Below, piece after piece: positions 23,530-39,299 of a stretch of 64,000 nt of DNA. The notes below the pieces were generated by a model. That model saw nothing but the letters and a program-made list of their open reading frames with translations. It did not search any database and was not told where the DNA came from. This DNA is from a virus (Duplodnaviria > Caudoviricetes). The DNA is taken from the IMG/VR virus record IMGVR_UViG_3300028920_000023; one strand, given 5' to 3'. The first letter of the stretch is position 1, and the number at the start of each line of letters is the position of its first letter. The translations under genes were made by a program, and so were the position numbers.

Positions 23530-24810
23530 TCATTTGTTTACAGAACCTAACCACTGACAAACCAGATCAATGACCACCGGAAACTCACACTCCGGGTCAG
23601 AAAGGATCTCGGTCGAAGCACCAATCTCCAAAACGGCCTTAGTCTTGATATTGTCTATCTTGAAGCTGGTCCCAGAACGGTGGCTTAAAGCAAAGCATAG
23701 ATCCAAGATCTTCTGGCTTTGATCTCCACTAAGGGACCTCGGCCACTGCACCAGCGCAATCGTGCCCTTCTCATAAGCTTCTACCTTGAAGTGAACAGGA
23801 CCATAATCCAAGGTCATTCGCGTAAATTTCCCAGTAAACTGCCCATAATGTTTAGTTGATCCAAGAATTTCGGTTGCCAGACCGTATTCCGAGAGCAGCT
23901 TGTTCCCAACCGCCCTAGCCAGATCAGACGCACCTTCCTCAACTGTCATCGACTTGCCTAGCCTGGGTTTAATCTTCTCGTTGCGAATATACTTAAGCGG
24001 GTTCTTTACCAGCTTGCACAACTCCACCAGCTGGTCCTCAGTGATCCTGCCCTCTTCCTCGAAGTGATCCATGAACTGTAATGCACCTACAGACTTCTTG
24101 ACAGCAACTCTGCAATCTTCAAAGGTCGGATTCCTAAAATACCGTATTGCTAATCCAGACTTCTTTAGAGCAGCCTGTTCAAGTTCGTCTGTGCGGTTCT
24201 CTTTCCTGATCCGCTGCAGCGCGTTGTAATTCTGTTTAATCGCAGCAAGCTTGATTGCCTCTGGCGGATTCCTGATATGCTGTATAGCATAACCATTTTG
24301 CTTTACTGCCGCTAATTTGACATCTTCCGAAAGACTCTCGATACACCGTATAGCAGTGCCATCTTGCTTTACTGCCGCTAATTTGACAGCTTCCGACGGA
24401 TTCTCGATATACTGTAGAGCAGTGCCGTTTTGCTTTACTGCTGCTAATTTGACAGCTTCCGACGGATTCTCGATACGCTGTAGAGCGTCAACACATTGCT
24501 TTACTGCTGCTATTTTGACATCTTCCGAAGGATTCTCAATATGTCGTATAACGTCACCGTGTCGATTTACCGCTGCTAATTTGACAGCTTCCGAAGGATT
24601 CTCAATATGTCGTATAACGTCACCGTTTTGCTTTACCGCTGCTAATTTGACATCTTCCGAAGGATTCTCGATATACTGTATAGCGTCACCATGTCGATTT
24701 ACTGCTGCTAATTTGACAGCTTCTGACGGATTCTTAATTTCTGTTATGACATCGGATTTGGAATGCCAACTCCGGACCTTCTTTAGCTGCTCAGCTTCGG
24801 ACAGGGCCAT
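23530..24810 (-). CDS. DUF4116-repeat protein
   Basis: Eight 22-aa units NPSE[AD]VKLAAV[KN][QR][NH]G.A[IL]..IE plus a unique C-terminal domain. Confidence 0.85.
   Translation of the reverse strand: MALSEAEQLKKVRSWHSKSDVITEIKNPSEAVKLAAVNRHGDAIQYIENPSEDVKLAAVKQNGDVIRHIENPSEAVKLAAVNRHGDVIRHIENPSEDVKIAAVKQCVDALQRIENPSEAVKLAAVKQNGTALQYIENPSEAVKLAAVKQDGTAIRCIESLSEDVKLAAVKQNGYAIQHIRNPPEAIKLAAIKQNYNALQRIRKENRTDELEQAALKKSGLAIRYFRNPTFEDCRVAVKKSVGALQFMDHFEEEGRITEDQLVELCKLVKNPLKYIRNEKIKPRLGKSMTVEEGASDLARAVGNKLLSEYGLATEILGSTKHYGQFTGKFTRMTLDYGPVHFKVEAYEKGTIALVQWPRSLSGDQSQKILDLCFALSHRSGTSFKIDNIKTKAVLEIGASTEILSDPECEFPVVIDLVCQWLGSVNK
24205..24732. repeat. 66-bp coding tandem repeat, 8 units
   Basis: Recurrent gctaatttgaca..ttc.ga.ggattctc at 66-nt period. 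Confidence 0.9.
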
Positions 24811-31230: not shown

Positions 31231-31402
31231 ACAAATCAGAGCAGAAATATTAGAGGCCCACAAAAAGCATATCGAAAATCATAAGGTGAGTATCGAGTTC
31301 AGTCCTGTCCATAGCGTTGGGGAGAATCCCCAGTGTGATGCAGATAGGACTAAGATTATTGTTGTTCCGCTAGAGACGGATACTGTAAAGTTCAAGACTT
31401 AG
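31211..31402 (+). CDS. hypothetical protein
   Basis: GGGGG SD before the ATG at 31211. Confidence 0.5.
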   Translation: MSLREARQIRAEILEAHKKHIENHKVSIEFSPVHSVGENPQCDADRTKIIVVPLETDTVKFKT

Positions 31403-31922
31403 ATTGGTTTCTTCTAGCTATTCCAGACAGGTATGAACAAAGCCAGAAGTATCCGTCTTTGATCCATTCGGCGTCTTTGAGTGCGTCATGCGCGCCTTCT
31501 TCTTGTTTTGGTAGTTTGTCTCTGGTTATTCCGTAGGCGTTTAGTGATTGCATGAGGTCCAGGCATAATTTTGGGAAGTGTTTTGGTAGTTTGTACATGG
31601 GTCCGAATAACCAACAGAAGTTTACCCAGTCATAATCTGCGAAGTATCCCCAGAATAGTGGGTTTTCGTCTTTGCCTATGAAGTCGAGTATTTCGTCTCT
31701 TATTTGTGTTCTGGTTTTCCATTGGTCTTTTGGTGGTAGTTTGGGTAGGACTTCTCTCATTAGGAAGTTGTGTTTTTTAGCTGCTTCGTAATCGAATTCT
31801 TTGCTAACTGCGTAATATTTCTTTTTGCCGGTTTCACAGACGATCCCTATGCTTATTAGTTCTATTCTTCCTCCGGTTGCGTCTGGCATTTCGTGAAATT
31901 CGGTGTCTATGAAGTACCTCAT
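31392..31922 (-). CDS. DEDD 3'-5' exo(ribo)nuclease, Rv2179c/DUF5051-like
   Basis: YFIDTEF, LISIGIV, FADYDWV, HDALKDA. Confidence 0.88.
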   Translation of the reverse strand: MRYFIDTEFHEMPDATGGRIELISIGIVCETGKKKYYAVSKEFDYEAAKKHNFLMREVLPKLPPKDQWKTRTQIRDEILDFIGKDENPLFWGYFADYDWVNFCWLFGPMYKLPKHFPKLCLDLMQSLNAYGITRDKLPKQEEGAHDALKDAEWIKDGYFWLCSYLSGIARRNQSKS

Positions 31923-31959: not shown

Positions 31960-32223
31960 TTATTCAGTCAAATGATTCTCGATAATATCCATAATCTCGG
32001 CGATATCATCATCGACGAAGTCCCTCAGACCAATAATTTTATGCCAATCCTCCTCAGTAAGAGAAAGATCGCTATTCGGACCCAACAAGTTCTGTAAACG
32101 ACTGATTTCGGAAGACAGAACACCCAATTCACAGAATAAACTAATCTGTTGATCCTTAGTTAGATCAACTTTCACAATCCGATTGTGGCCTACGCAATCC
32201 GAAGCATGAGCAGGCTCTGTCAT
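31960..32223 (-). CDS. hypothetical protein
   Basis: GAGGAG SD; 87 aa. Confidence 0.65.
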   Translation of the reverse strand: MTEPAHASDCVGHNRIVKVDLTKDQQISLFCELGVLSSEISRLQNLLGPNSDLSLTEEDWHKIIGLRDFVDDDIAEIMDIIENHLTE

Positions 32224-32374
32224 TATGTGCTCTCCTCTTGTCTTTCACTTTGGAGTCAATGCATTCGCACATCTTGGAGTGATTGAATTCTTCGTCTGCT
32301 TCGCCCCAAAATATACAGTCTCTGCATTTCTTGTTTCTAGGATTATAGTTAGATATTATTGTTATTATGGACAT
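32165..32374 (-). CDS. small Cys-rich hypothetical protein
   Basis: C.DC..W...C.C...C.CF pattern; start uncertain (32374 or 32440). Confidence 0.45.
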   Translation of the reverse strand: MSIITIISNYNPRNKKCRDCIFWGEADEEFNHSKMCECIDSKVKDKRRAHNDRACSCFGLRRPQSDCES

Positions 32375-32467
32375 ATGTCCCCCACCAAGACAACCGTCGC
32401 GGTCTTCCTTTTGCCGTCCGTTCCGCGTTGAACAGATCACCGGACTGAACGATAGAGCGTTGGCTTA

Positions 32468-32921
32468 CCACGCGCCCGTACGCACGCGGAACGATTTGGC
32501 CACTAGGAGTACAGCTCGCTGTACCACGCGCCCGTACGCACGCGGAACAAACCCTCCGGCAGTAGGCCAGTCAGGTTTGCCTTACCACGCGCCCGTACGC
32601 ACGCAGAACAAACCCAACGTCCACAACAGGGATGAAGTGAACAGCCCACGCGCCCGTTGACGTCCACTTTTGGCCATTGCACGTTCCACGCGCCCGTACG
32701 CACGCGGAACAGACCCTACCGCCGTTGCCTACGTCATTTGCCCAAACCACGCGCCCGTACGCACGCGGAACAGACGTTCTGTCCAGGGTCGGCACTACCC
32801 CACGCGCCCGTACGCACGCGGAACTCGGCGTGCCTGCTCGCGTTGACGCTGTTGCTCCACGCGCCCGTACACACGCGGAACTCCGTAACGATTCCTGTGG
32901 GCAAAGCGTGCTGGGCGGAAC
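32468..32921. CRISPR. CRISPR-like repeat-spacer array, no cas genes in window
   Basis: Repeat CCACGCGCCCGTACGCACGCGGAAC at 32468, 32524, 32585 (1 mismatch), 32686, 32747, 32800, 32857 (1 mismatch); 12-nt truncated copy at 32646; GCGGAAC remnant at 32915. Spacers 31, 36, 36, 28, 36, 28, 32 nt. Confidence 0.75.
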
Positions 32922-33094
32922 TCCATAGTTCGTCTTCGACTATCACTTCTGGATAGCCTCTAGGCGACCGTATAGCCTGAAAACCCACAGGACTGAATTG
33001 TCAAAGAACCACTGCGGACCGCTTGTATCGAAGCAGGAAAACACATAAATTTAATCATCAATAGTATCATCATCTGATTTGAAAACACTAAGGA

Positions 33095-33122
33095 TTGCGC
33101 CGATAATTATCACGAGTATAAT
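33095..33122 (+). promoter_or_regulatory. sigma-70-type promoter with palindromic operator
   Basis: TTGCGC-16 nt-TATAAT. Perfect palindrome GATAATTATC (33102-33111) in the spacer; second ATAATTATCAC overlapping the -10. Confidence 0.55.
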
Positions 33123-33217
33123 TATCACCGCAGAAATAAGTAATCCAGAAGTCATAAAAGAGCCTCCAGCACACAACTTTCAACACCATAAAAAAGAGGT
33201 ACTATGCACATTGTGAG

Positions 33218-33277
33218 GTCGATACAAGGAGAAACACCATGCGCTGCGTCGATACAAGGAGAAACACCATGCGCTGC
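33218..33277 (+). repeat. exact 30-bp tandem duplication spanning SD and start codon
   Basis: GTCGATACAAGGAGAAACACCATGCGCTGC x2. Confidence 0.95.
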
Positions 33278-36172
33278 ACCTATGCACTCCTCTTTTTTGC
33301 ACCCGTTCTATGTTTTGGCACAGAAGAAGCCCTACTCAACACAGACGCCACCACAGACACAGACAAACACGACTGGCGCATCCACGCAGACACCAACCAA
33401 CAAGGCCTCTGGCACGCCATCTGGTATCGCACCAAACCAGACAACACAATCAGCATCCTAAAAGCCAAAAGCACCGACAACGGATACACCTGGAACACAC
33501 CAACAGTCCTAAGCCAAAACAGCATCGCAGACGCCAAACACACATCACCCAAAATAGCCACAGACAAACAAGGCCTCTGGGTAGCCACCTGGATGACAAA
33601 CGACAACCAACAAGGACGCAAAACCTCCTACAACATAGCCATACGCACAAGCACAAACAACGGAGAAACCTGGACCAAAACCAAAATCATCGGAACAAAC
33701 TCCTGCAAAGACCCAGACATCAAAATACACAACGGAACAATACTAATAGCCTGGGACTACTGGGACGGCAACAAAACCAACATCGCATATAGAACCAGCA
33801 CAAACGGAAGCACCTGGAGCAACACAACAATCTTCAACCACGACGGAGACGACAGCAACGTCAACATAGAAGCACACAACAGCACCTGGGCCATAACCTG
33901 GAGCAAAACCTACACAATCGGATCATACAAACAATCAGACATCTTCCTAACCCACAGCACAGACCTACAAAACTGGACAACACCACAAAAAATCAACAAC
34001 GGCAAAACAGGACAACAAAGCTACGACATCTACCCAAAAATCGAAACAAACGGAAACAAGTGGGTAGTCATCTGGAACGGCAAAAACACACTCAACAACG
34101 CCGGAACAGACTACGACATCATCAGCACAACCAGCACAGACCTACAAAACTGGACAACACCAACCGTTGTCAACAGCAACGGCACAACAGACAACAGATC
34201 AGACGAAGACCAGCAAATCGTCTACAACCAAGGAATTTGGACAGCAGTATGGTCCGGCTCCAATAACGTAGACATCAACGACATGGACGTCTACTACGCC
34301 ACAAGCACAGACGGACAAAACTGGGGGCCAAGGCAAGCCCTCAAATCAAACACCTACACAGATCCAACCTGGGTCGACGACGAAGCACCAAACATCTTCA
34401 CAGACGGAACTGGCTGGCTAATTGCCTGGACCTCCGAAGACAACAGAGACAACTGCGAAGCAGACAGAGACCTCTTCTACACCGTCAGCACAGACGGACA
34501 AAACTGGAACACCACACCACCAGCACCCCTAATCGCACAAGACGACCAATACACAACACAAGAAGACCAAAGCATACACAACAGCGTACTAACCAACGAC
34601 AACCCAGAAATATCATCAAGATCATTAGTCGCAAAACGAACCACCCTAAACGCCACACTAAACTCGCCACCCTCACATGGAACACTAGACTTCCATGCCG
34701 ACGGAACATTCACATACCAGCCAGACACCGGATACAATGGACAAGACACCTTCACATACACCGCCACAGACGGGATAAGAATATCCAACGAAGCCACAGC
34801 GCACATCACCGTACAGCCCATCAACGCCATAATACCAACCGCCATAATACAAGCCAGCCTCTGGAATATCCAGGTCGGTGATGATGTAGGATTCGATGGT
34901 AGCCATTCAGAAGATATCGACGGGGAAATTATAGAACACCTGTGGGATTTCGGAGATGGAACCATCATGGTAGGTGAGATACTAACTCACAAGTATAACA
35001 ACCCAGGCAATTATGAAGTCACACTCACAGTAACAGACAACGAAGGACTAACCGATAACGATACAATCATTATTATAGTAGAAAAAACAGAAGAAGGCAA
35101 CGATAAATTCGATATCGACGACGGCAAAATAACACCAAAAGACACATATATCGTCACAGCCAAAGTACTTGGAGCAGCCATCGAGATACCAGGACAATAC
35201 GAACTCATGGTCACAACCAGAATCAAGATCGGGGACGAAATCTTCGAATGCTGGGGAGACTGGAACAATGCGACCGAATCCAACGTGAACGACCATCAAG
35301 TGCATACCTGGACATCCGATAGAGAATTCGACATGCTCCCAATCTCCGCACAGGGGAAATCCTGGAAGAAGTACGGACAGAGCTGGAGACCCTTTATAAC
35401 AGTAGACTCAGAAACAAAACCTCAAATGGTCAAAATACTCAAGAATGGAGACACAATCCCAAATCTCTTGCCCTGGAACAACCAGAGCAATATAGAGGAT
35501 TTCATACAAGGCTTTCTGGATCTAGAGACGAATACCATCACACTGAACGAGAACGAAGCGATTTTCCTTTTCGAACTGGGTACAACCGACCCACACAGCG
35601 CCGCAGCCGATTACCAAGACCTCGTTGTCCTAATCTCCCTCGGGGAACCAGAACCCACACCAGAACCCACACCAGAACCCACACCAGAACCCACACCAGA
35701 ACCCACACCAGAACCCACACCAGAACCCACACCAGAAGCCAGAAAACCAGGATTTAAGCAGCTAAAATACAGAACAGTCTGGGATAAAGACAATCAAGAC
35801 CAATTCATGCTTAAAATGATAGACTTCGACGGACAGAACGGAGACCAAATAACAATAACCGTAGGCAAAAACACCTGGACAATCGAACTAGGGAAAGGAA
35901 ACGCACACAAAGACAACAATATAAGAGCCAAAGTGACCTCAAGCAACATGCTAATGTTCAAATGCGTGAGAGGAAACTTTGAAGACAACCTAGACTACAG
36001 ATCAAAGAAACAAAAGAAAGGAACAATGACACTGCCCATCACTGTCAATATAAACGAATCAACATTCAATTATAAAATCGACGTCGATTACAAAGTAAAA
36101 TCCAGGAAGAAAGAAGAATTCTCAATCTTCGGAAAGGACCTACGCAAAAGAAGAAAAACTAACCGTTTCTAA
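33269..36172 (+). CDS. large exported-type multidomain protein (signal peptide, Asp-box beta-propeller, Ig/cadherin-like, PKD, PEPT linker)
   Basis: Hydrophobic N-terminus; S-x-D/N-x-G-x-x-W Asp boxes; AQDDQY...GTL...DGTFTY.P; FDGS.S.D.DG.I...WDFGDG; (PEPT)7. Confidence 0.85.
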   Translation: MRCTYALLFFAPVLCFGTEEALLNTDATTDTDKHDWRIHADTNQQGLWHAIWYRTKPDNTISILKAKSTDNGYTWNTPTVLSQNSIADAKHTSPKIATDKQGLWVATWMTNDNQQGRKTSYNIAIRTSTNNGETWTKTKIIGTNSCKDPDIKIHNGTILIAWDYWDGNKTNIAYRTSTNGSTWSNTTIFNHDGDDSNVNIEAHNSTWAITWSKTYTIGSYKQSDIFLTHSTDLQNWTTPQKINNGKTGQQSYDIYPKIETNGNKWVVIWNGKNTLNNAGTDYDIISTTSTDLQNWTTPTVVNSNGTTDNRSDEDQQIVYNQGIWTAVWSGSNNVDINDMDVYYATSTDGQNWGPRQALKSNTYTDPTWVDDEAPNIFTDGTGWLIAWTSEDNRDNCEADRDLFYTVSTDGQNWNTTPPAPLIAQDDQYTTQEDQSIHNSVLTNDNPEISSRSLVAKRTTLNATLNSPPSHGTLDFHADGTFTYQPDTGYNGQDTFTYTATDGIRISNEATAHITVQPINAIIPTAIIQASLWNIQVGDDVGFDGSHSEDIDGEIIEHLWDFGDGTIMVGEILTHKYNNPGNYEVTLTVTDNEGLTDNDTIIIIVEKTEEGNDKFDIDDGKITPKDTYIVTAKVLGAAIEIPGQYELMVTTRIKIGDEIFECWGDWNNATESNVNDHQVHTWTSDREFDMLPISAQGKSWKKYGQSWRPFITVDSETKPQMVKILKNGDTIPNLLPWNNQSNIEDFIQGFLDLETNTITLNENEAIFLFELGTTDPHSAAADYQDLVVLISLGEPEPTPEPTPEPTPEPTPEPTPEPTPEPTPEARKPGFKQLKYRTVWDKDNQDQFMLKMIDFDGQNGDQITITVGKNTWTIELGKGNAHKDNNIRAKVTSSNMLMFKCVRGNFEDNLDYRSKKQKKGTMTLPITVNINESTFNYKIDVDYKVKSRKKEEFSIFGKDLRKRRKTNRF
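35648..35737 (+). repeat. 12-bp coding tandem repeat (PEPT)7
   Basis: CCAGAACCCACA x7, all identical. Confidence 0.95.
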
Positions 36173-36509
36173 TCCTTTCACTCAAATACTCGACCTCCTG
36201 TCTAATCCGCTGATCCGTCTCAACAGCATGGCCCATCCTGCGAACAACATAATGGACCGAAGAATGATCACGATCACAAAAAAACTGACCAATCTCAGAC
36301 AAACTATGATCAGTCAACTCCCTACATAAATAAATCGCAAAATGCCTAGCCCTAACAGCCGTAACATGCCTCCGATGCGAACGAACGACATCCCTGTCGA
36401 TATTATATCTAGAAGCAACAACACCAACTATCTCCGACATCGACAAAATGCTACCAACCTCCCTATCTGGGGACCACCTACCGCACCAGGGGCATCTCAT
36501 CATGACCAC
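36159..36509 (-). CDS. stand-alone DnaA domain IV (DnaA-box-binding HTH) protein
   Basis: I...VA..Y.I....V.S.RR...VRARHFAIYLCRELTDHSLSEIGQFF..RDHSSV; N-terminal CPWC; no AAA domain. Confidence 0.88.
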   Translation of the reverse strand: MVMMRCPWCGRWSPDREVGSILSMSEIVGVVASRYNIDRDVVRSHRRHVTAVRARHFAIYLCRELTDHSLSEIGQFFCDRDHSSVHYVVRRMGHAVETDQRIRQEVEYLSERIRNG

Positions 36510-36892
36510 CCATCAAAACCAACAGAACCGTATTCCACACGTGTACAAAAGACCGACAGGCTGTAGCTTGTGCTCTGCAAAACGAAGTCGATTCGGTAGT
36601 ACCTGTCCTGGTCCCGGATGATGTCCCCTCTGGTCGGTGGTATCGTCAGATTGATGAATTTCCTATCGTCATTCTTTCTGTTGCTGATCAGCAGATTCGC
36701 TCTAAGCCCCTTTAGACTTTCCTCTAGGCCGTCACAAATGTCCAGAATTCGGTCATGCTCGTAATCATCGAATTGTGTTACGACGATACTGCCGTCTCTG
36801 ATGTGTAGATCCGGTGCTGGTTCCCAACCGACATCACCTTTAAAGCTAAGGCATGATATTGCTCTTACTTCGTTGCTCTTGTGTATCTGCAC
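36500..36892 (-). CDS. hypothetical protein
   Basis: 130-aa ORF with SD. Confidence 0.6.
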   Translation of the reverse strand: MQIHKSNEVRAISCLSFKGDVGWEPAPDLHIRDGSIVVTQFDDYEHDRILDICDGLEESLKGLRANLLISNRKNDDRKFINLTIPPTRGDIIRDQDRYYRIDFVLQSTSYSLSVFCTRVEYGSVGFDGWS

Positions 36893-36993
36893 TTTGTGTT
36901 CTCCCTTTTCCCCGTCCTATCGCTCCATATGCGATTAGGAAGTAGAGCGCCAAAAACATATATCTTCGATATCGCCTGCGTAAAGCTATCCAT

Positions 36994-37001
36994 CAAAGAT
37001 A
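36994..37001 (+). promoter_or_regulatory. putative phage late promoter CAAAGATA
   Basis: 24 nt upstream of the ATG at 37026. Confidence 0.6.
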
Positions 37002-37025
37002 CCATAAGACAAGGAGACAATACTG

Positions 37026-39299
37026 ATGGAACTGAGTGAAAAACTAGATCGCGTGTTTGGTCTAAAGCAAGTATTCGTTGAAGAAAATCAAGTATTAGAC
37101 GCCAACAAATGGCAAGCAGCAGACCCAGACCACCTAAACAAATTAGCTTTCTCTAAAAGCACAGGAGCACGAATGAACGCGCTCCTGAGAATCTTACGCG
37201 ATCTAGGCGAATACGACCTATTAAACACAATCAAAAAATATGACTCAGAAAATCCAAATTCAAGAAATCTAGCTTATGAGCTATACAAGCAAGCACGCAA
37301 AGAAGCACGCAAAGAAGCCAACAAAAGAGCTGCCATAGACCCCACCAGACGCGGCAAAGTCTTACGCAGAAGAGAAGCAGAAGCGCCAGCAGCTGGTATA
37401 GAGAAATCCCCAGAATCCAAACTGGTGGACCTGGCCCAAGCACGAGAAAAACCAGACAGAGAAAGACCAGACGATTATCGTTGGGCAATCATGGATGTAG
37501 ACACCGGAGAATATGCCAAAGACGACCAAGGCCACGCCATAACCGCAGAAACAGAAGACGACGCCCAAGCCCTAATCGACGGCGAAGTCGATATGTTCCC
37601 AGACCCGGACCAGTACACACCTAAAAGAATTGAAAACCCCAAATCACTAAAAGCACTAAGTAAAATCGTTAAACCACTACAGAATGGTTGGACTATGGAC
37701 GAAGTAGTCAAAGCGCTCATGCCTTATATCAGAAGTTTATCATGGAAATTCAGAAATGAAAAAGCAGACTTCGACGACCTAACTCAGACAGGCGCATTAG
37801 CCGTACACAACGCTATAGAAACAGACAAAGGCATAGCGCCATTCGCATGGCACGCCTATCCGCATGTCAAAGGGGCAATCATGAACACCGCCCTACGTGG
37901 TGGCGTAGTGTCCGGAGGAGAAAGAACATTCCGGCAAAAAGGACCAATCTCCGGATATACCATACTCTGGCGAGAACCAGAAGACAACCCAGACGAAGAA
38001 CCTAGATCAATTCACTTCGGCAGTAAAGAAATGACCGGAGCTCAATATGGGGGAACAGCTAGAGCAGAAGCGGGAAAAGGCGGAAGATCCGACCCCGGTC
38101 TAGAAAAAGCAAAACAGATGCAAGACCGACTCCGCGAAAGAGGTATCATCTCAGCCATCCGACCAGAACGACAAAGACTGGCGTCAATGGCATCCAAACT
38201 AAAAGGATCAGAAGGACAAACCGAACTTGGCGATACAGTCAAAGCAACCAAAGTAGCATCCCCAGAATTCATAACCCAACAGCAAGAATTATTCAATATG
38301 CTTATGGATAAAGCAGAATTGAATGATAAAGAAAAAGAAGTAATGAGAATGGCCTATGGACTCGATGTACCAGAAGCAGGACTTAGAGGCCCCTCCTACA
38401 GCGGAAGAGACCAAGGCGTCTTCGGTCCACCCGAATCAGGTGAAAAAGAAAGAAAACCGGGAGAACAATGGGGCATACCCTCGCCAACTGCCCAAGGCAA
38501 GCTCCTCAGACGCCATGCAGGCGAACTCGAAGGAGAACCCGAAGCAAGAGGGCCAGTAGAAATATCCGATATCCTGGGAATGCCGCGTAGCACCGTAAAA
38601 CGAAATTTCCAATCCGGTAGTAAGAAGCTGTACAAAGCAAGAGACGAACTATACAAACAATACCCGCATCTGCGACCCTTCATGAACAAAGCCTTTGGGA
38701 AGAAAAAAGCAGAAGAACCAGTAGGGAAGCCAACAAAGAAAGCCGCAAGGAAACCAAAGCCCGCAACAGTACCGGCTGCAGCGCCAGGGCAATACGACCA
38801 AGAAACGCTAGACTGGGCTCAAAAACACGGCTTCCCGCCAGAACAAGCCGCAATAATGATGCAAGCATTACGTAGCGCAGGAAAATTAGATGATAGCTTA
38901 GACAGAATCTTCGATGGGGAACTAGATCAACTGGACGAGCGATTTGGGCGAAAAGAAGTACCAAACATCAAAGCAACAAACTATTATTGCGCACGATGTG
39001 GGGAAACTACAAGACACTCCCTCAGAGGAGATAAATCGACCTGCGAAAAATGTGGAGCCATAAAAAGCAAAGTAACAGAAAGCCAAGCAGTATACGAAGC
39101 CAACATCATGTACCGTACATTCCTTAAAGCAACAAGGAAAATACGTAAAGCAGCCATAGAAGAAATAGACGAAAGATCAAAGCACATCCTAGAAGGAATA
39201 GACGAGCAAGAAATCAAAAACCTCTTAGAAATAGAAGACATCTGCAGACAACACCTGATAAAAGCAATCGTCTCCGGAGATTACAACGACATCGTCTAA
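37026..39299 (+). CDS. giant sigma-70-like factor (757 aa), paralogue of 5093..7051
   Basis: Region 2-like DDLTQTGALAVHNAIETDKGIAPFAWHAYPHVKGAI; region 3.2/4.1-like TELGDTV...SPE...LNDKEKEVMRMAYGL; HTH EISDILGMPRSTVKR. Confidence 0.75.
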   Translation: MELSEKLDRVFGLKQVFVEENQVLDANKWQAADPDHLNKLAFSKSTGARMNALLRILRDLGEYDLLNTIKKYDSENPNSRNLAYELYKQARKEARKEANKRAAIDPTRRGKVLRRREAEAPAAGIEKSPESKLVDLAQAREKPDRERPDDYRWAIMDVDTGEYAKDDQGHAITAETEDDAQALIDGEVDMFPDPDQYTPKRIENPKSLKALSKIVKPLQNGWTMDEVVKALMPYIRSLSWKFRNEKADFDDLTQTGALAVHNAIETDKGIAPFAWHAYPHVKGAIMNTALRGGVVSGGERTFRQKGPISGYTILWREPEDNPDEEPRSIHFGSKEMTGAQYGGTARAEAGKGGRSDPGLEKAKQMQDRLRERGIISAIRPERQRLASMASKLKGSEGQTELGDTVKATKVASPEFITQQQELFNMLMDKAELNDKEKEVMRMAYGLDVPEAGLRGPSYSGRDQGVFGPPESGEKERKPGEQWGIPSPTAQGKLLRRHAGELEGEPEARGPVEISDILGMPRSTVKRNFQSGSKKLYKARDELYKQYPHLRPFMNKAFGKKKAEEPVGKPTKKAARKPKPATVPAAAPGQYDQETLDWAQKHGFPPEQAAIMMQALRSAGKLDDSLDRIFDGELDQLDERFGRKEVPNIKATNYYCARCGETTRHSLRGDKSTCEKCGAIKSKVTESQAVYEANIMYRTFLKATRKIRKAAIEEIDERSKHILEGIDEQEIKNLLEIEDICRQHLIKAIVSGDYNDIV

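Follow-up and report, generated by a model that had tools for sequence, protein, structure and literature searches.

A 64-kb stretch of marine sediment DNA, which resembles part of a very large, novel phage, carries a compact series of short repeats separated by unique sequences. The series lies between minus-strand ORFs that are about 680 nt apart. The window, as the whole analysed stretch of 64 kb is called here, encodes no cas gene. The locus raises the question of what it is and, should it be a CRISPR array, which effector could make use of it. A first-pass annotation had described it as a Cas-less, CRISPR-like array with a hybrid-looking repeat. Seven full 25-nt repeats, one truncated repeat of 12 nt and a terminal remnant had been listed, and on recounting all of these were found as claimed, at the positions given (Table 1).

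The repeat reads CCACGCGCCCGTACGCACGCGGAAC on the plus strand and GTTCCGCGTGCGTACGGGCGCGTGG on the minus strand. Five of the seven full copies are identical, and the remaining two, at 32585 and 32857, carry one change each. Start-to-start periods along the window are 56, 61, 61, 40, 61, 53 and 57 nt. The eight spacers, all of them unique, measure 31, 36, 36, 28, 36, 28, 32 and 33 nt, in agreement with the unequal lengths of 28-36 nt reported earlier. Dinucleotide-preserving shuffles of the window gave zero matches to the repeat; because of this, and of the seven copies, the architecture cannot be put down to chance. The locus shows what generically marks a CRISPR array, namely three or more direct repeats (23-47 nt) that hardly differ from one another, with unique spacers of similar length, and it is the only one of its kind in the window (n = 1), the other repeat families being coding tandem repeats. 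The object at 32468-32921 is a CRISPR-type array in a phage genome.

Table 1. Positions of the array, its units and adjoining features in the window.
Feature	Position	Strand	Remarks
Whole CRISPR-like array	32468..32921	-	7 full repeats, 1 truncated repeat, 1 remnant and 8 spacers
Repeat R1	32468..32492	-	consensus; last repeat in minus orientation
Repeat R2	32524..32548	-	consensus
Repeat R3	32585..32609	-	variant C5->U (minus strand), U-G pair kept
Truncated repeat	32646..32657	-	3' 12 nt only (minus strand); unit 40 nt vs 61
Repeat R4	32686..32710	-	consensus
Repeat R5	32747..32771	-	consensus
Repeat R6	32800..32824	-	consensus
Repeat R7	32857..32881	-	variant C11->U (minus strand), U-G pair kept
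Repeat remnant	32915..32921	-	GCGGAAC (plus-strand letters), first 7 nt of the repeat on the minus strand; GGA 5' extension in common with R7
Eight spacers (span 32493..32914)	32493-32523, 32549-32584, 32610-32645, 32658-32685, 32711-32746, 32772-32799, 32825-32856, 32882-32914	-	
Sequence after R1 in minus orientation	32432..32467	-	9 of its first 12 nt agree with those that open the spacer after R3 (by eye); candidate terminal guide slot or former spacer
Inverted 8-nt partial copy of the repeat 5' end	32420..32427	+	GTTCCGCG
34-aa ORF	33051..33155	-	precedes the array on the minus strand; annotated as a gene in an ENA assembly
69-aa cysteine-rich ORF	32165..32374	-	directly downstream of the array on the minus strand; uncalled in the ENA assembly
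Rv2179c-like 3'-5' exoribonuclease	31392..31922	-	about 550 nt downstream, same orientation as the array

The genes of the window include those for ThyX, an NAD-dependent DNA ligase, helicases, AAA ATPases, radical-SAM proteins and a PKD/Ig surface protein, together with one tRNA-Arg. Several of the largest window proteins have no match among the PHROG families, and no close relative of the phage was found in INPHARED or IMG/VR. Likewise, no relatives of a 757-aa protein were found in IMG/VR or of a 1276-aa protein in INPHARED, and homologues of an ATPase are only about 35% identical. A scan of 75 ORFs against PADLOC and Pfam detected no cas gene, as had been claimed; weak Cas3/DinG-type matches were obtained, of the kind a generic helicase gives. 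The neighbouring 418-aa protein was considered as a Cas protein and dismissed, having no recognisable likeness to any of them. An 87-aa ORF also lies downstream of the array, and the start codon of the 69-aa ORF is located inside a perfect 12-nt palindrome, GGACATATGTCC (32369-32380).

A number of further features were observed in the surrounding DNA. The 757-aa protein (37026-39299, plus strand), whose gene lies 4 kb from the array, bears signatures of the sigma-70 family; with TIGR02937 (sigma70-ECF) it reaches 43.1 bits, slightly more than the cutoff of 42.9. Its regions 2 and 4 lie about 250 residues apart, and it is far above the size of a normal sigma factor. A 116-aa protein (36159-36509, minus strand) consists of the C-terminal DNA-binding domain of DnaA only (PF08299, 5e-21; TIGR00362 positions 346-437). 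At 33218-33277 the ribosome-binding site and ATG of the PKD/Ig gene fall within a perfect tandem duplication of 30 nt, so that the gene has two in-frame starts; the PKD/Ig surface protein has 957 aa in assembly ERZ27252253 vs 977 aa. Over the PKD-protein and sigma-like genes, AT skew is 0.41-0.48 in five of the six 1-kb bins at 33000-39000 (plus strand), where it is sustained over about 5 kb; strong AT skew also occurs elsewhere in the window. The coding tandem repeats comprise 66-nt units at 24208-24735 (ORF 23530-24810) and 12-nt units at 35635-35753, near the C-terminus of the PKD protein.

As RNA of the minus strand, the repeat forms a hairpin of 8 bp in which CCGCGUGC pairs with GCGCGUGG (-14.6 kcal/mol). 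RNA of the plus strand reaches only -6.7 kcal/mol, and two of the pairs turn into A-C mismatches. Over the seven copies, 56 of 56 pair cells are paired on the minus strand. Both repeat variants are C-to-U changes at stem positions that keep G-U pairing, whereas the plus strand would have A-C mismatches at these sites. Since the minus strand gives the stronger fold and is the only one on which both variants are G-U-compatible, it is likely the RNA strand, although the evidence is modest; the likeness to type I-C repeats described below implies the same orientation. The 3' end of the 8-bp helix coincides with the repeat-spacer border on the minus strand.

The borders of the repeat bear on how the array came about. 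The 25-nt core is invariant in all positions apart from the two changes, and identity per column in both flanks is at background overall (0.18-0.57, with an expectation of 0.25). The exception is a run of 3-6 bases 5' of the core (minus orientation) that is common to blocks of neighbouring units: GGA, GGA and CGA in the remnant, R7 and R6; GTCT in R5 and R4; GGGTYT in R4, R3 and R2; and ATC in R1. Such blocks in neighbours are expected if a mutated end repeat was copied onward repeatedly while the array grew. The sharp edge between core and flanks fits copy-and-paste duplication of the repeat better than slow tandem divergence of a 61-nt unit, and a near-invariant core between random flanks argues against neutral decay of a longer repeat. 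No conserved handle of 8-11 nt follows the hairpin, column identity past GTGG being at background.

The array has lost sequence since. One unit, that of the truncated repeat, measures 40 nt instead of 61, so that about 21 nt are lost, with one break inside the repeat, and two of the nine repeats (the 12-nt copy and the remnant) are truncated. Small deletions are wearing the array down. Its growth has probably ceased as well, given that the phage has no adaptation genes in view. The same DNA is present in assemblies of ENA and Logan. One of these could be read and has an identical array; in a second, the gene spacing across the array is the same, as taken from its gene calls. Spacer turnover, proposed earlier as a check on CRISPR function, accordingly shows no sign in the one readable assembly and the gene spacing of the second.

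The repeat had been viewed as a mixture of type I-E and type I-C, the last 12 nt on the minus strand corresponding to the I-C core and lacking what normally follows it. When IMG/VR was scanned for sequences with two copies of ACGGGCGCGTGG, typical I-C repeats of 32 nt were obtained (L246:173-672 and L245:1-91), in which this block is identical to the final 12 nt of the repeat. The I-C continuation is indeed missing: a GTTGAAAC-type handle follows the core in L246 and is absent here. The repeat is therefore unusual, as had been suspected, in that the I-C core is kept and the handle is not. As a family, the proposed hybrid of I-E and I-C could not be upheld, because no handle follows the hairpin and no Rfam family matched the repeat at E<=10. 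Rfam includes the CRISPR-DR repeat models.

Class 1 repeats carry a conserved 8-11-nt handle after the hairpin, and the type I-E repeat in particular is 29 nt long, recurs regularly every 61 nt and has, besides its hairpin, a conserved 3' handle of 8 nt. A working type I-E repeat was rejected here, there being no conserved 8-nt 3' handle and only three of seven intervals of 61 nt, and a working type I-C repeat was rejected for want of a conserved 11-nt handle ending TTGAAAC after the hairpin. The array and type I-C have the 12-nt block in common, identical in both, and both have GC-rich hairpin repeats. However, the I-C repeat is 32 nt long, in L246 with its handle and a period of 65-67 nt, whereas the repeat of the array has 25 nt; its hairpin register is shifted, GTGG being drawn into the stem, and the sequence past GTGG is not conserved. 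Judging from the sequences, the I-C likeness may reflect ancestry.

Exact searches did not return the repeat. The 25-mer is absent from IMG/VR, from 185,579 species genomes (GTDB) and from the JGI metagenomes, and the 21-nt hairpin core, likewise sought as an exact match, occurs in neither the 185,579 genomes nor the JGI metagenomes. Scans of IMG/VR with looser patterns of the hairpin arms were set aside, the inspected matches being 12-nt coding tandem repeats or single chance matches. When, in search of further arrays with this repeat, the spurious reading frames across the array were used as protein queries (ENA, Logan), nothing was found in one and a single unrelated repetitive protein in the other. 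An IMG/VR contig (L243:5542-5748) carries an array with a 61-nt period, in which a repeat of about 30 nt contains CACGGGCGCGTGG, then ACTGCGGG. By its letters, this repeat appears as a different family around the same GC-rich block.

The spacers have a GC content of 0.50-0.66, with a mean of 0.558 vs 0.451 for the window, which bears out the earlier remark that they are richer in GC than their surroundings. Random sets of equal-length window pieces reached this mean in 19 of 20000 cases. A spacer GC well above that of the phage points to a foreign origin of the spacers, unlike the phage's own DNA. The search for protospacers, likewise proposed as a check, came back empty: none was found inside the window (best match 13 nt), INPHARED phages and PLSDB plasmids gave chance-level matches only, and two spacer 20-mers were both absent from IMG/VR. 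The short motifs said to be common to some spacers are present, ACGTCCAC in spacers 3 and 4 and CGTTGACG in the truncated-repeat junction and spacer 7, but they rise barely above chance in shuffles. Spacers 2 and 5 agree in register at 19 of 36 positions. The top pair score was reached by 10 of 300 shuffles and the second observed value by 16 of 300; the total of the anchored similarity, with the first 6 nt skipped, was reached by 75 of 1000. Similarity between spacers is marginal and is not taken as a sign of an iteron array. Four spacers (2, 3, 5 and 6) start with A[AG]AC, as stated in the first-pass annotation, and if these bases are counted as repeat, three spacers become 32 nt long.

Which effector could the array serve? 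In guides of class 2 type V systems, such as those of Cas12a and Cas12j, a repeat-derived handle lies 5' of the guide, with the hairpin flush with the spacer. Here, too, the hairpin is located at the 3' end of the repeat and abuts the guide, as would be looked for in a type V or dCas12f-type array, and by analogy the flush hairpin would be the layout of type V guide RNAs. The description of the array as Cas-less holds for the 64-kb window and does not extend beyond it, a putative nuclease-dead Cas12f-like protein being located about 200 kb away in the same phage genome. We tentatively prefer the reading that the array is an eroding satellite of the phage's own putative nuclease-dead Cas12f-like system, to which we would give a little less than an even chance. 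The repeat holds CGCGTG twice, one copy per hairpin arm, and a deletion between the copies would yield the 8-mer CCGCGTGG. It is mainly from this predicted collapse to CCGCGTGG and from the spacers that would be 32 nt long that we infer a place for the array in the phage's own system.

According to the proposed satellite model, this would be a genuine CRISPR array that grew in the past by repeat copying and is now worn by small deletions. Transcription would follow the minus strand and might take in the small genes that flank the array on that strand. Having no effector of its own, it would work in trans with the distant Cas12f-like protein, and the scaffold RNA, if the array is used, would likewise be supplied in trans from the distant putative Cas12f-like locus. 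Such dependence is suggested by array flanks in which no strongly folded element was found (z -1.45, +0.19 and -0.55) and by a window in which no anti-repeat was found. Up to eight guides would be added in this manner, with which the protein would bind, but not cut, GC-richer DNA belonging to the host or to competing elements. We infer three things here, namely kinship of the repeat with the distant arrays, loading onto the Cas12f-like protein and a repressive outcome. That the Rv2179c-like exoribonuclease trims the 3' ends of the guides is pure speculation. If the phage's own putative Cas12f-like effector serves the array, the undescribed system that had been entertained earlier is not needed.

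Several observations weigh on the satellite model from the other side. The scaffold or tracr-like RNA that would mark a dCas12f-type system was not found beside the array. In a word look-up of one repeat plus flanks against the distant putative Cas12f-like locus, zero sampled words were common to both. With longer queries three to four words were in common with that locus; these were given no weight, an unrelated bacterial gene having yielded as many and the sampled words varying with the query. Counting against use is also that two of nine repeats are truncated, so that part or all of the array may be dead. The empty protospacer searches and the unchanged array in the one readable assembly speak against the model as well. 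RNA-guided transcription has reportedly been shown of late for bacterial dCas12f-sigmaE. A viral version of this mechanism, with the array guiding the putative dCas12f-like protein, which together with the 757-aa sigma-70/ECF-like protein of the phage would start transcription at RNA-specified sites, is conceivable by analogy but very improbable.

Two other explanations retain a CRISPR origin, and we regard each as unlikely. The array could be a viral mini-CRISPR array directed against competitors with the help of a host type I (I-C-like) system, or an RNA decoy or regulator of the Racr/Cracr type, with hairpins that sequester or reprogram host Cas proteins. Such phage strategies have been described (PMC6858448, PMC10651486, 10.1101/2024.10.29.618823), the repeat ends in the same 12 nt as real I-C repeats have in their core, and the window has no cas gene; moreover, Cracr spacers target variants of one target, which could explain the weak similarity of spacers 2 and 5 (19/36). 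However, with no handle after the hairpin class 1 crRNAs could not form, and by exact matching the 25-mer occurs in no species genome, JGI metagenome or IMG/VR record. The repeat is not known from any host array. A decoy for which the hairpin suffices should allow the loop and the 5' GTT to vary, yet both are invariant. Alternatively, the array could be an inert relic, captured or inherited long ago, that gives no functional RNAs and persists in the intergenic gap of about 680 nt. The truncated repeat, the remnant and the irregular units would suit a relic, as would the lack of a leader-like or scaffold element, of targets and of turnover. Against this, five of seven repeats are identical and both changes keep the hairpin, and neutral decay would not spare 25 positions so sharply while the adjoining bases are at background.

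The remaining explanation, that the locus is no CRISPR array and instead provides protein-binding sites (iterons, an origin, a partition site or an operator) or RNA hairpins for transcript processing or stability, is in our view decidedly improbable. A protein consisting of DnaA domain IV only is encoded 3.2 kb away, and some spacers have motifs in common, both of which would be in keeping with it. But neither the regular helical phase nor the GC-skew switch of iterons and origins is seen, as the periods of 53-61 nt are out of helical phase and cumulative GC skew makes no turn at the array, and no DnaA box was recognised at the repeat-spacer junctions (compared with the consensus by eye). The repeat departs from palindromy twice, each time in a way that allows G-U pairing on one strand only, which argues for RNA rather than a DNA-binding dimer. 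For hairpins in transcript processing, there are no genes between them to punctuate, and the relatedness of the spacers is too marginal in the shuffles described above to lend the non-CRISPR explanation much weight.

The consequences differ with the state of the array. If it is used by the distant dCas12f-like protein, the guide repertoire of the phage would be spread over several loci. The effector would then tolerate a diverged repeat without an adjoining scaffold, which would help to define the part of the repeat read by the protein, and what the phage silences, be it in its host or in rival elements, could be traced through the GC-rich spacers. A dead array would still be a record of how arrays decay in a genome without adaptation genes, via deletions that start inside repeats.

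Virus-borne repeat-spacer units without nearby cas genes are also known as mini-arrays, Racr and Cracr (PMC6858448, PMC10651486, 10.1101/2024.10.29.618823). These mimic a known host repeat including its handle, whereas the array described here has neither a host match in exact searches nor a handle, and it has eight spacers where described Cracr arrays have two or three. In bacterial dCas12f loci, arrays can be discontinuous or vestigial, with a structured RNA upstream (PMC13472631). The vestigial state is alike, and here as there the guide would sit 3' of a repeat-derived hairpin; however, those systems are from Bacteroidota and use 14-16-nt guides, whereas the phage array has spacers of 28-36 nt, no adjoining scaffold and a link to its effector that is putative. 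Closest in setting are the huge phages. Compact arrays with a median of six repeats are frequent in them; Cas1, Cas2 and Cas4 are lacking, and in some cases so is the effector. Repression of a host gene has been put forward as the role of a catalytically impaired Cas14/Cas12f ('dCas14') of a phage (Al-Shayeb et al. 2020, PMC7162821). The present locus is likewise a small array in a giant phage, with no Cas1, Cas2 or Cas4 nearby and the effector elsewhere or absent. It differs from those arrays in its distance of about 200 kb from the putative effector, in being visibly eroded and in having a repeat found nowhere else in the collections searched. Most likely, it is a further example of this known type of phage array.
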